Of a stretch of DNA of 64,000 nucleotides, positions 22,530-30,997 are shown piece by piece. The position numbers were made by a program, and so were the translations under genes. The notes beneath the pieces were generated by a model. That model saw only the letters and a list, made by a program, of their open reading frames with translations. It did not search any database and was not told the origin of the DNA. The number at the start of each line of letters is the position of its first letter. Within the stretch, counting starts at the first letter, position 1. Source of the stretch: Escherichia coli (lineage in GTDB: Bacteria > Pseudomonadota > Gammaproteobacteria > Enterobacterales > Enterobacteriaceae); assembly GCF_003018255.1 (NCBI RefSeq), contig NZ_CP027440.1. One strand, given 5' to 3'.

Positions 22530-22613
22530 TTAATTTCGATTATTTTTCCCGGATGGAAAATTCTTAGAAACCGATCACATACAGCTGCATTTATTAAGGT
22601 TATCATCCGTTTC

Positions 22614-22700
22614 GCTGAAAAACATAACCCATAAAATGCTAGCTGTACCAGGAACCACCTCCTTAGCCTGTGTAATCTCCCTTACACGGGCTTATTTTTT
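22614..22700 (+). ncRNA. cyaR: CyaR (RyeE) Hfq-dependent small RNA
   Basis: Sequence gctgaaaaacataacccataaaatgctagctgtaccaggaaccacctccttagcctgtgtaatctcccttacacgggcttatttttt matches CyaR as recalled, including terminator hairpin and U tract. Confidence 0.85.
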
Positions 22701-22870
22701 ATACATAAACCATAGAGACGGATTGATCCCAGGTCACCGTCTTCCATTGACCACATCGATAGAATCTCCCTTCATAGCACGATGCCTTTCACGTAACGGC
22801 ATCGTGCTCGCACAGGTTCCGGCTAAGCACAACCAGAACGCGGATGTTTGACGCTTACCAAAAAATATTC

Positions 22871-24540: not shown

Positions 24541-24574
24541 GCCGGATGCGGTGTAAACACCTTATCCGGCATAC
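24541..24574. repeat. REP element
   Basis: gccggatgcggtgtaaacaccttatccggcatac palindromic unit between convergent yegS and gatR. Confidence 0.6.
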
Positions 24575-24583
24575 AGAACAATA

Positions 24584-25363
24584 CTACACCGTAATTAATT
24601 TCACCCGTGTCTTCTGCAATGCCAGTTTATCCACCTCTGACACAGCATCGTCGGTAATAATAATGTCGATTTTTTCGATTGGCAGTACCTGATTAAAACC
24701 GCGACGATTAAATTTCGATGAATCGAGAACGGCAATCACTTTATTTGCGGCGGTGACCATCGCCCCGCTAATCGAATAACCTTCATTAAAGGTCGTAATA
24801 CCATTAACCGCATCAATACCATCAGCACCGACAAACATTAAATCGGCATTAATATCCTGCAATGAACGCTCGGCAATGGAACCATGCATCGAGCGTGTTT
24901 TATGGCGGACGGTCCCACCACAGACGACCAGAGTAATGTCTTTATTTTCGGAAAGGGCAAACGCCGCCGGGAGACTGTTGGTAATCACCGTGATATTTTT
25001 GGCGGTCATTAAACCTTCGGCGATAAGCATTGTGGTACTTCCGCTGTCGAGAATAACGGTCATCCCTTCGTGGATCATTTTGACTGCCGCCTGCGCTATT
25101 CTGTTTTTTGGCGCACTGGCGAGCTGAAATCGCTCTTTAAACCCAACTTCCTGGGTCTCGGTTTCGCTATTACCGGACATTATTTTCGCCGCACCGCCAT
25201 GAAAGCGCGTAACCACGCCTTTTTGTTCGAGAAAGCGCAAATCGGCACGGATTGTCGCTTCCGAGGCAGCAAATACTCCCGCCAGATCCTGAACAAGCAC
25301 GGTTCCCTGTTCATTCACTAATTGGATGATCTTATTCCTTCGCTCGAATGAATTCATCGTCAT
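24584..25363 (-). CDS. gatR: DeoR-family galactitol operon repressor GatR, uninterrupted
   Basis: 259 aa continuous ORF; N-terminal HTH (ERRNKIIQLVNEQGTVLVQDLAGVF) and DeoR sugar-binding C-terminus. Confidence 0.8.
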   Translation of the reverse strand: MTMNSFERRNKIIQLVNEQGTVLVQDLAGVFAASEATIRADLRFLEQKGVVTRFHGGAAKIMSGNSETETQEVGFKERFQLASAPKNRIAQAAVKMIHEGMTVILDSGSTTMLIAEGLMTAKNITVITNSLPAAFALSENKDITLVVCGGTVRHKTRSMHGSIAERSLQDINADLMFVGADGIDAVNGITTFNEGYSISGAMVTAANKVIAVLDSSKFNRRGFNQVLPIEKIDIIITDDAVSEVDKLALQKTRVKLITV

Positions 25364-25462
25364 TTACCCATATTCAATTGTGGCTAGTGTAAACGAAGGG
25401 GGACCATTGGTGAATGATCTGTTTTGCACAATACCGGGCCAGCATCACGCTGGCCCGCGGTT

Positions 25463-26503
25463 TCAGGGAATGAGCAACACTTTGCCCGGCATAGCATTAC
25501 GAGCGATGTCACGCACCGCCTGGGCGAAGCTTTCAAAGCTTCCACGGTGAACGATTAATGGCTCCAGGCTTAACTTACGTTCTGTCAGCAACCGACTCGC
25601 CGTTTCCCACTCCTGCCCCGGCCAAGGGCTGGAGTAGTTCATCCAGCTGCCGATCACCGTCAGCTCTTTACGTAATATTTTGCCAAACGTTGTCGATGTT
25701 AAATGCAGATCCTGATGCAACGTGCCCACCAGCGCCAGCTGGGCATGAGGCCCGGCAATCTCTACCGCCAGTTCGACAGTTTGCGGGACGCCAGCCGTCT
25801 CGAGGATAAGCTGATTAAAGCGCAGCTCGCGTAAAACGCCCTGCATTTGCGGCGCGCTCATTTCAAGGCTGTTAAATGTTTGCATCGCACCGAAAGATTT
25901 TGCCAGTGCCAGTTTTTCTGAGCTAATGTCGATAGCCGTCACACTCTTTGCTCCCAGCGCGACAGCGCACTGAATAGCCAGCAGGCCAATGGTTCCGGCA
26001 CCAATAATAATAACGTTTTTATTCTCACAACCTTGCGCTAAATGAAAAGCATGCAGGCCAACGGTAATCGGCTCAATAAAAGCCCCATCCTCAATAGGCA
26101 TATCCGTGGGTAGAGCAAAGACATTTTTTCGCTTAACGACAATATATTCAGCAAGTCCACCATCACGCCGCGAGCCAATAAAATCATATTTTGCGCACTG
26201 GGAATAAAACCCTTTCAAACACTCTGGACAAGTAAAACAGGGTAATAACGGCACACAGGCAACCACATCGCCAGGGTGTAAATCATCAACACCGGATCCC
26301 ACCGCATCAATATAGCCGCTAAATTCATGACCTAACGTTATTGGATAATAATGTGCACCATTTTTAAATATCCTGGGTAAATCGGAACCACATAAGCCCG
26401 AGCTGGCAATTTTTACCCGCACCTCATCCTGATGTTTAATTTCAGGAATGACGCTTTCTGCTACGCGCACGATACCATCAGTATCATTCACCACTGATTT
26501 CAT
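25463..26503 (-). CDS. gatD: Galactitol-1-phosphate 5-dehydrogenase
   Basis: 346 aa Zn-dependent MDR-family dehydrogenase with Rossmann GAGTIG motif. Confidence 0.9.
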   Translation of the reverse strand: MKSVVNDTDGIVRVAESVIPEIKHQDEVRVKIASSGLCGSDLPRIFKNGAHYYPITLGHEFSGYIDAVGSGVDDLHPGDVVACVPLLPCFTCPECLKGFYSQCAKYDFIGSRRDGGLAEYIVVKRKNVFALPTDMPIEDGAFIEPITVGLHAFHLAQGCENKNVIIIGAGTIGLLAIQCAVALGAKSVTAIDISSEKLALAKSFGAMQTFNSLEMSAPQMQGVLRELRFNQLILETAGVPQTVELAVEIAGPHAQLALVGTLHQDLHLTSTTFGKILRKELTVIGSWMNYSSPWPGQEWETASRLLTERKLSLEPLIVHRGSFESFAQAVRDIARNAMPGKVLLIP

Positions 26504-26550
26504 AAAAACTCCTGATTGTTAAGGGGGATAACATCCCCCTCAGGTAAAAA

Positions 26551-27906
26551 TTATTCTGCGAGAACGGCTTTCTCTTGTTTAATAAAACCACGCGCTCTAC
26601 GCCAGGTCATGAAAATACCGGTAAGATAAATTGTGCCGATAATAATGAAGCCGGGAATATTTTGCGGGGAGAAAACCTGAATCAGTAACCAGGTAATGGG
26701 AGAACCGCCCTGATCCATTGAAGCCACCATACCCCCGGCTTTTAACGCCCCAGCATTAGCCGCCAGTTGGGTGTGCAAACCAATAGTTTGCGTCGCGATC
26801 CACAGGGTGATGCTCATAATGATGACACCCGAGATTAAGGTGCGGAACAGATTTCCACGATGCACCGCGACCGCCATCGCTACAAAGAAACCGATGGTGG
26901 CAAGGTCGCCAAACGGCAGTACCTGATTACCCGGAACACAAACAGCAATTAAAATGGTGAGCGGGATAAAAATCAGGCTTGCCGATACCACCGCCGTATG
27001 CCCCAGCAGCAACGCCGGATCAAGGCCAATCAGGAACTCCTGACCGCCGAACTTCGCCTGTAAACGACTACGGGCCTGCTTAGCGATGGGCGTTAAACCA
27101 TCCATGATGGGTTTAATCACCCGTGGCATCAGCAGCATAACTGCCGCCGTTTTTACCGCCAGCTGCAATACACCTTTGACATCGTAACCCGCGAGGATGC
27201 CGATAATCAGCCCCATCACAAAGCCCACGGTGACAGGTTCGCCAAATGGGCCAAATTTGCGCTGAATATCGTCGGCGCTAAATTTAATACGGTTAACGCC
27301 TGGGATTTTCTCGATGATAGCATCCACCAGCACCGCAATTGGCCCCAGATACGCCGACGTACCGTGCGGAATAGCAATGCCTTCCAGCTCAAAGAAATTT
27401 CGGGTATCGCGGGCAAACCAGTCGCCGAGCTTATAAACAAACGCCGCGTGAATTACCACACCCGCCATCCCTATCATCCATGAACCGGTTGCCAGATGCA
27501 GCAATGCGCCGGTGAAGGTCATATGCCAGATATTCCAGATATCAACATTTACCACCCGCGTCATACGGGTCAGTAGCATCGCCACGTTAACCAGAATCGC
27601 AATCGGAATCGCCACCAGCGCAATTTGCGACGCCCAGGTCATTGGTGAAGAGCCCGGCCAACCGACATCGACCACATGCAGATTCAGGTCAAAATTTTCC
27701 GCCATCGCTTTCGCCGCCGGGCCAATGGAATCCAGCATTAAGCCAATCACAAGGCCAATACCAACAAAGCCAATCCCGATATGCAGACCTGCTTTAAAGC
27801 AATCGCCTGCCTTCATGCCTAATATTTTAGAAAAAATAATGATGACAATCGGCAGCATCACCGTAGGGCCGAGGTCGAGAATATAACGCATGACTTCTGA
27901 AAACAT
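26551..27906 (-). CDS. gatC: PTS galactitol-specific EIIC component
   Basis: 451 aa polytopic membrane protein in gat operon context. Confidence 0.9.
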   Translation of the reverse strand: MFSEVMRYILDLGPTVMLPIVIIIFSKILGMKAGDCFKAGLHIGIGFVGIGLVIGLMLDSIGPAAKAMAENFDLNLHVVDVGWPGSSPMTWASQIALVAIPIAILVNVAMLLTRMTRVVNVDIWNIWHMTFTGALLHLATGSWMIGMAGVVIHAAFVYKLGDWFARDTRNFFELEGIAIPHGTSAYLGPIAVLVDAIIEKIPGVNRIKFSADDIQRKFGPFGEPVTVGFVMGLIIGILAGYDVKGVLQLAVKTAAVMLLMPRVIKPIMDGLTPIAKQARSRLQAKFGGQEFLIGLDPALLLGHTAVVSASLIFIPLTILIAVCVPGNQVLPFGDLATIGFFVAMAVAVHRGNLFRTLISGVIIMSITLWIATQTIGLHTQLAANAGALKAGGMVASMDQGGSPITWLLIQVFSPQNIPGFIIIGTIYLTGIFMTWRRARGFIKQEKAVLAE

Positions 27907-27909
27907 AGG

Positions 27910-28194
27910 TCACCCCTGTAAGATAGTCAGAATTTTATTTTGTAATGCTTCGATACCGACACCAGAAACAAAAGGCATGCCGTGAACTAACGGAATATCG
28001 CCAAAACTTCGATCCACCCTGGCAGTGGTGCATATCAAATGCACGCCATCCATATAGGTTTCTATTTCATTAACCCGACACTGGATTAATTCAACAGGAA
28101 TATTATGACTCTGACACAACTCTTTAATTTCTTCCGCCGCCATCGTAGAGGTCGCAACCGCGCCTCCGCAAGCGACAATAATCTTGCGTTTCAT
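27910..28194 (-). CDS. gatB: PTS galactitol-specific EIIB component
   Basis: 94 aa with N-terminal active Cys ([12 protein letters not shown]). Confidence 0.9.
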
Positions 28195-28224
28195 AAATAG
28201 TCCTTTTTATTGTTACAGAGGGAT

Positions 28225-28677
28225 TTATTCGTCTGAATCTAAAACATACTTTGTGAAGTATTCCTTTAACTGGGTTTCAGGAAGAGTGATTAGTGTCTCG
28301 ACGATCTCGGGCTGTTGTAACTTGCCAAATAAACAGCGTAAAAGTTTCAATTGCTGCTGCGGATTTTCCACAATTAACGCAATAACCAACGATACCGCCA
28401 CGTCGTTATCATCATCCGCTTGCTGAAAATGAACTTTATTTGTTGGCCTTAACAGATAAATGGCTGACGACTTAGCATGAATCGCCTCACAATGCGGTAT
28501 TGCAATGGCGTGCTGCTCAAGCATTATCCCGGTAGGGAATTCTGCTTCTCTGGCAATTAATGCCTGTGGCCAGGTATCATGAACCACACCTTTCGCGAGC
28601 ATCTCATTACCGATATGGGTTAAAACTTCGCTACGATCGACAAAAGAAATTCCGCTACGAACAAACAGGTTAGTCAT
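28225..28677 (-). CDS. gatA: PTS galactitol-specific EIIA component
   Basis: 150 aa EIIA-like ORF in gat operon context. Confidence 0.9.
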   Translation of the reverse strand: MTNLFVRSGISFVDRSEVLTHIGNEMLAKGVVHDTWPQALIAREAEFPTGIMLEQHAIAIPHCEAIHAKSSAIYLLRPTNKVHFQQADDDNDVAVSLVIALIVENPQQQLKLLRCLFGKLQQPEIVETLITLPETQLKEYFTKYVLDSDE

Positions 28678-28686
28678 ATACCGTCC

Positions 28687-30886
<2,200 letters not shown>

Positions 30887-30997
30887 TTAAATGTCGCGAT
30901 AACGATCACAAAAACGACAATATGAAAATCAATCCAGGAATGAAAGGCAAAAAAAACGGCCTCCCGGGGGAAGCCGTAACAAAGTACGCGTGGTTTT

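Follow-up and report, generated by a model that had tools for sequence, protein, structure and literature searches.

On the minus strand of the 64,000-nt stretch of Escherichia coli DNA analysed here (the window), an open reading frame exactly spans positions 24584..25363, with an ATG start, 259 sense codons and a TAG stop. The earlier note had described a continuous gatR frame of 259 amino acids belonging to the DeoR family, without giving its strand, and the description held: the frame is whole and encodes both DeoR domains. The N-terminal DNA-binding domain, HTH_DeoR, is encoded at 25184..25342 on the minus strand (amino acids 8-60; Pfam PF08220, E 1.3e-16), where it reaches 60.5 bits against a cut-off of 21. 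The C-terminal, effector-binding sensor domain, DeoRC, follows at 24650..25111 on the same strand (amino acids 85-238; Pfam PF00455, E 2.5e-51), with 174.2 bits against a cut-off of 31.8. These scores, and a length of 259 amino acids in a family of about 250, place the protein among the DeoR/GlpR regulators, and because Pfam finds both domains, the interval is a real gene and no chance frame. The sole solved relative identified by sequence is 7L6L, a DeoR C-terminal domain. The NCBI pipeline places the start at the second ATG (25357), which gives 257 amino acids; both lengths are found in public annotation, and exact copies of the 259- and 257-residue proteins are encoded on no fewer than 1000 public contigs.

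The encoded protein is identical at 259 of 259 residues to GatR of E. coli HS, and it is also 100% identical to GatR of NCM3722. HS, NCM3722, TUM14771 and 2014C-3338 share one accession for GatR, WP_001295426.1. Aligned with gatR of 2014C-3338, the gene is gapless over all 780 nt with three differences, and neither this alignment nor the one with K-12 gatR after excision of its IS3 reveals an amino-acid change, a frameshift or an internal stop.

The gene lies directly downstream of a full-length gatYZABCD and on the same strand, which is the position of the orthologue. The six structural genes occupy 25463..30832 on the minus strand, as gatD (25463-26503), gatC (26551-27906), gatB (27910-28194), gatA (28225-28677), gatZ (28687-29949) and gatY (29978-30832). 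Each is full length and scores above its NCBIfam cut-off, none has an internal stop, and their lengths match those in 2014C-3338. Among the four proteins searched for exact copies, GatD, GatC, GatZ and GatY, each was found on between 65 and more than 1000 public E. coli contigs. GatD carries V80, L117, L213, T271 and V318, which differ from both K-12 and 2014C-3338, while GatR has zero differences; that exact GatD, present on 65 public contigs, is therefore a natural allele. In gatY, a longer frame of 286 amino acids starts at an ATG (window 30833-30838) that is GTG in 2014C-3338 (locus L003, 1526-1531), and RefSeq uses the second ATG, for 284 amino acids.

fbaB precedes gatY, and a terminator-like hairpin with a T-run at the end of fbaB (30956..30977, minus strand) bounds the gat control region on its upstream side. 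On the other side, yegS converges on gatR from its downstream end. The gap between the two genes holds a REP-like palindrome (24541..24575, no strand assigned; fold -33.3 kcal/mol, z = -4.8), which is probably the 3' hairpin of both the yegS and the gatR transcripts. The order gat operon, gatR, yegS is the same in the annotated genomes of TUM14771, 2014C-3338, HS and NCM3722.

Insertion alleles of gatR and their frequency

The statement in the earlier note that K-12 gatR is disrupted by an insertion sequence, leaving the gat operon constitutive, agrees with both sequence and literature (PMC3045373, PMC3446290, PMC4072538, PMC5850726). In an MG1655 derivative, gatR is annotated as two pseudogene fragments flanking an IS3 transposase, and a BLAST comparison of the window with this locus breaks at window 25059-25061 with an overlap of three bases. 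The K-12 insert is an IS3 of 1258 bp with inverted ends TGATCTTACC.../...GGTAGGATCA and GTC, the duplicated target, on either side. In the window, this target site (25059..25061, no strand assigned; about codon 101-102) is unoccupied and GTC is present as a single copy; K-12 IS3 searched by BLAST against the whole 64,000 nt gave no match. The check proposed in the earlier note, an alignment with K-12 gatR for the absence of an insertion, was run and is ungapped, with an empty IS3 site and neither IS sequence nor frameshift within 24584..25363. When IS3 and one GTC are excised from K-12 gatR, a 259-codon frame is restored whose product is identical to GatR of the window. The two genes then align without gaps over 780 nt and differ at 21 nucleotides, 21 of 21 synonymous, and this ratio of 21 synonymous to no non-synonymous differences indicates strong purifying selection on GatR. 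One sentence in the literature names the MG1655 insertion "IS1" (PMC5850726); the MG1655-derived sequence is IS3, and IS1 is the element of BL21.

In the BL21 lineage, the same gene with the same flanks as in the window is interrupted by IS1A. This insertion carries a 9-bp duplication, CTGAAATCG, and is some 65 bp away from where IS3 sits in K-12 (BL21 locus L005, 2051-2835). The corresponding target in the window (25124..25132, no strand assigned; about codon 78-80) is likewise empty. Given that the IS3 and IS1 insertions are separate, both major laboratory lineages lost GatR independently.

The state of gatR was surveyed in 5,426 complete E. coli genomes, 5,109 of which have some gatR match and 317 none. 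At least 80% of the gene is found at one place in 4,756 genomes, a figure that overcounts intact copies and includes BL21-type genomes, because the matching joins pieces across the 768-bp IS1. Searches for the insertion junctions, which served as a correction, found the K-12 gatR::IS3 junction in 345 genomes (80-nt probe) and the BL21-type gatR::IS1A junction in about 62, so that contiguous gatR is present in at most about 86% of the 5,426. An uninterrupted gatR is thus the rule, and interrupted copies are largely those of laboratory lineages. The copy at 24584..25363 is an ordinary, undamaged gatR, in the state of most E. coli and already known.

Codons of about 78 to 102, between the DNA-binding and sensor domains, might constitute a recurrent target for insertion sequences, through which populations would switch from regulated to constitutive use of galactitol. 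IS3 and IS1 were gained independently within 65 bp of each other, and a restored gatR gained new insertions in mouse guts within days (PMC5850726). The proposal is a tentative one and, on balance, somewhat doubtful; if true, the window would represent the state before such a switch, in which neither target site is occupied.

Relation of the strain to K-12

The earlier note had taken the intact gatR as a sign that the strain is not K-12. The conclusion stands and the argument does not, as the K-12 strain NCM3722 has an intact gatR, adjacent to the K-12-specific ogrK remnant. Since NCM3722 retains the gene (also PMC3045373) and an intact copy is the norm in E. coli, gatR is weak evidence against a K-12 origin. 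What excludes K-12 is the nucleotide divergence of 2-4% together with the missing ogrK remnant. In the gat region, the window is 96.2-97.7% identical to K-12 (2.3-3.8% divergence), and the window (22530-22870, compared with 1854-2433 of K-12 locus L001) lacks the cryptic ogrK/P2-like remnant, made up of ogrK and part of a phage D gene, that K-12 carries between yegQ and yegS, or more narrowly between yegQ and yegR. NZ_CP026085.1, a genome that bears the label DH5alpha and has an intact gatR, was considered as K-12 evidence and dropped. It measures 4.83 Mb, an integrase adjoining yegR replaces the K-12 arrangement, and it is probably not a genuine DH5alpha or K-12 genome.

Among the 5,426 complete genomes, the nearest reaches only 98.9% identity to the window across 14-38 kb and 99.5% across 40-64 kb. 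Those closest to window 14000-64000 are JNE23-011, JNE112863, SCU-171 and 2014C-3338. The window appears to come from a sparsely sampled E. coli lineage, whose exact Gat proteins do exist in public draft data; the presence of the exact GatD and GatC on 65-73 public E. coli contigs marks the lineage as a natural one.

Control regions and proposed regulation

The region upstream of gatY (30833..30955, minus strand) contains five TTTCA/TGAAA boxes, at 30833, 30859, 30872, 30923 and 30941, which are candidate GatR operators. Their density is the maximum in the window (5 against 0.53 expected), in a region that is AT-rich and by a test devised after the sequence had been seen. Two of the features within it are an inverted repeat, ATTTCA-N8-TGAAAT (30858-30877), whose core is shared by four strains, and a candidate CRP site, TGTGA-N6-TCGCG (30892-30910). 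Similar operators, CTTTCA...TGAAAG, are predicted for TagR, a related DeoR regulator (PMC12226905), and the CRP-like site is consistent with the reported control of gatY by CRP (PMC3390287).

The 99-bp spacer between gatD and gatR (25364..25462, minus strand) contains a hairpin with a 9-bp stem just past the gatD stop (25435-25457) and a palindrome, GATCATT-N4-AATGGTC (25402-25419). Across six strains this spacer is invariant except for one base in one strain, while the flanking genes differ by 2-4%. Such near-invariance suggests a constrained regulatory element, and the spacer presumably holds the promoter or operator of gatR itself. A scan for consensus sigma-70 promoters upstream of gatY and in the 99-bp spacer upstream of gatR found none. 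A further motif, AAAACARATCATT, which lies upstream of both gatY and gatR (two in the window against 0.33 expected), was considered as an operator and dropped, the pattern having been derived post hoc; in addition, the C of its ATCATT is A in HS and 2014C-3338.

In the proposed mechanism, GatR oligomers would bind through the N-terminal helix-turn-helix to the TTTCA-type repeats in the region of about 120 bp upstream of gatY, and possibly also to the palindrome upstream of gatR. While GatR is bound, GatABC (the PTS transporter), GatD (the dehydrogenase) and GatYZ (the aldolase) would stay repressed. After uptake and phosphorylation of galactitol, one of the intermediates of the pathway would bind the DeoRC domain and the repressor would be released, with cAMP-CRP additionally required for gat expression. 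Candidate effectors, all of them predictions, are galactitol-1-phosphate, tagatose-6-phosphate and tagatose-1,6-bisphosphate (PMC5540944).

It is very likely that this intact, wild-type gatR encodes the DeoR-family repressor of gatYZABCD and that the strain expresses the operon inducibly, unlike MG1655 and W3110 (gatR::IS3) or BL21 (gatR::IS1). Sousa et al. exchanged the MG1655 pseudogene for gatR of HS; the resulting strain regulated the gat operon, and constitutive mutants later arose in it through new IS insertions in gatR (PMC5850726). Because a GatR identical to that of the window restored regulation in MG1655, and because the six structural genes are full length, inducible catabolism of galactitol in this strain is a reasonable and well-supported inference. 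Furthermore, in mouse guts, LF82 and CFT073 with gatR silenced by CRISPRi showed a strong fitness signal, attributed by the authors of that study to gat de-repression, either as a benefit gained from it or as a failure of it (bioRxiv 10.64898/2026.01.05.697630).

Among the alternatives, the one that survives best is that the strain is constitutive or galactitol-negative despite its intact gatR, through cis-acting changes at gatY or changes in the structural proteins. The region upstream of gatY is polymorphic between strains and differs from that of HS at several bases, which leaves room for cis-acting differences; GatD differs from its K-12 and 2014C-3338 counterparts at residues 80, 117, 213, 271 and 318; and both gat-negative and gat-constitutive variants readily emerge in vivo (PMC5850726). 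However, the gatY upstream region keeps its core inverted repeat, the structural proteins score far over their family cut-offs, and the public occurrence of the exact GatD, GatC, GatZ and GatY identifies them as established natural alleles, so that this alternative is improbable. It is scarcely credible that gatR is intact in sequence but silent, which would leave gat in a K-12-like state. The 99-bp spacer lacks a sigma-70 consensus promoter, yet it is almost invariant, read-through from gatD can also transcribe gatR, the exclusively synonymous differences from K-12 place the protein under selection, and silencing of gatR strongly affects wild strains (bioRxiv 10.64898/2026.01.05.697630).

A last alternative, that the frame encodes another sugar repressor of the DeoR family, an AgaR- or SrlR-type paralogue merely located near gat, could draw on the best NCBIfam models, AgaR (232.9 bits) and SrlR (226.3 bits), and on the lack of a GatR-specific model in NCBIfam, but is effectively refuted, as both scores remain under the curated cut-offs of 260 (AgaR equivalog NF040755) and 350, the frame is colinear with the two pseudogene fragments of gatR in K-12 and has an identical product, and the position after gatD is kept in each strain examined (TUM14771, 2014C-3338, HS and NCM3722). 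With no GatR model in NCBIfam and the AgaR and SrlR models below their cut-offs, the family is given as DeoR/GlpR, and the name gatR derives from orthology and context.

Comparison with known systems

With gatR taken as a functional repressor gene, the strain carries a well-known sugar-alcohol operon in its normal, regulated form, which is broken in the usual laboratory strains of K-12 and BL21. The finding matters little alone and is relevant to work on gut colonisation and experimental evolution. In MG1655, where gat is expressed constitutively, the operon is rapidly lost as a consequence (PMC3945185, PMC5850726), and MG1655 should not be taken as the reference state for gat regulation.

The closest known system is GatR of HS, NCM3722 and most wild E. 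coli (WP_001295426.1), which is the same protein, encoded in the same position after gatD, with an identical gatD-gatR spacer and the same convergence of yegS. The alleles encoding it show only synonymous nucleotide differences from the window (three in 2014C-3338 and 21 in K-12), and the RefSeq start lies two codons downstream. Intact gatR has been reported for NCM3722 and REL606 (PMC3045373, PMC3446290, PMC4072538). The MG1655/W3110-type allele of K-12, gatR::IS3 ("IS3E" in the literature), is the same gene, its two halves having 96.4% and 98.4% nucleotide identity with the window. It differs in carrying IS3 after about codon 101, where the window has no insertion, and in its constitutive gat operon (PMC5850726, PMC3045373, PMC3446290); the high or constitutive gat expression in MG1655 has been ascribed to this broken gatR (PMC3045373, PMC3446290, PMC4072538, PMC5850726).

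More distant are AgaR, SrlR (GutR) and TagR, the repressors of other E. coli PTS operons for hexitols and amino sugars, which share the two-domain architecture of GatR and supply its best-scoring family models. Their control regions have a similar layout, with a CRP site and TTTCA-type repeats (PMC12226905). In contrast to these likenesses, GatR does not reach their equivalog cut-offs, and each of these repressors acts on another operon and presumably responds to another effector.
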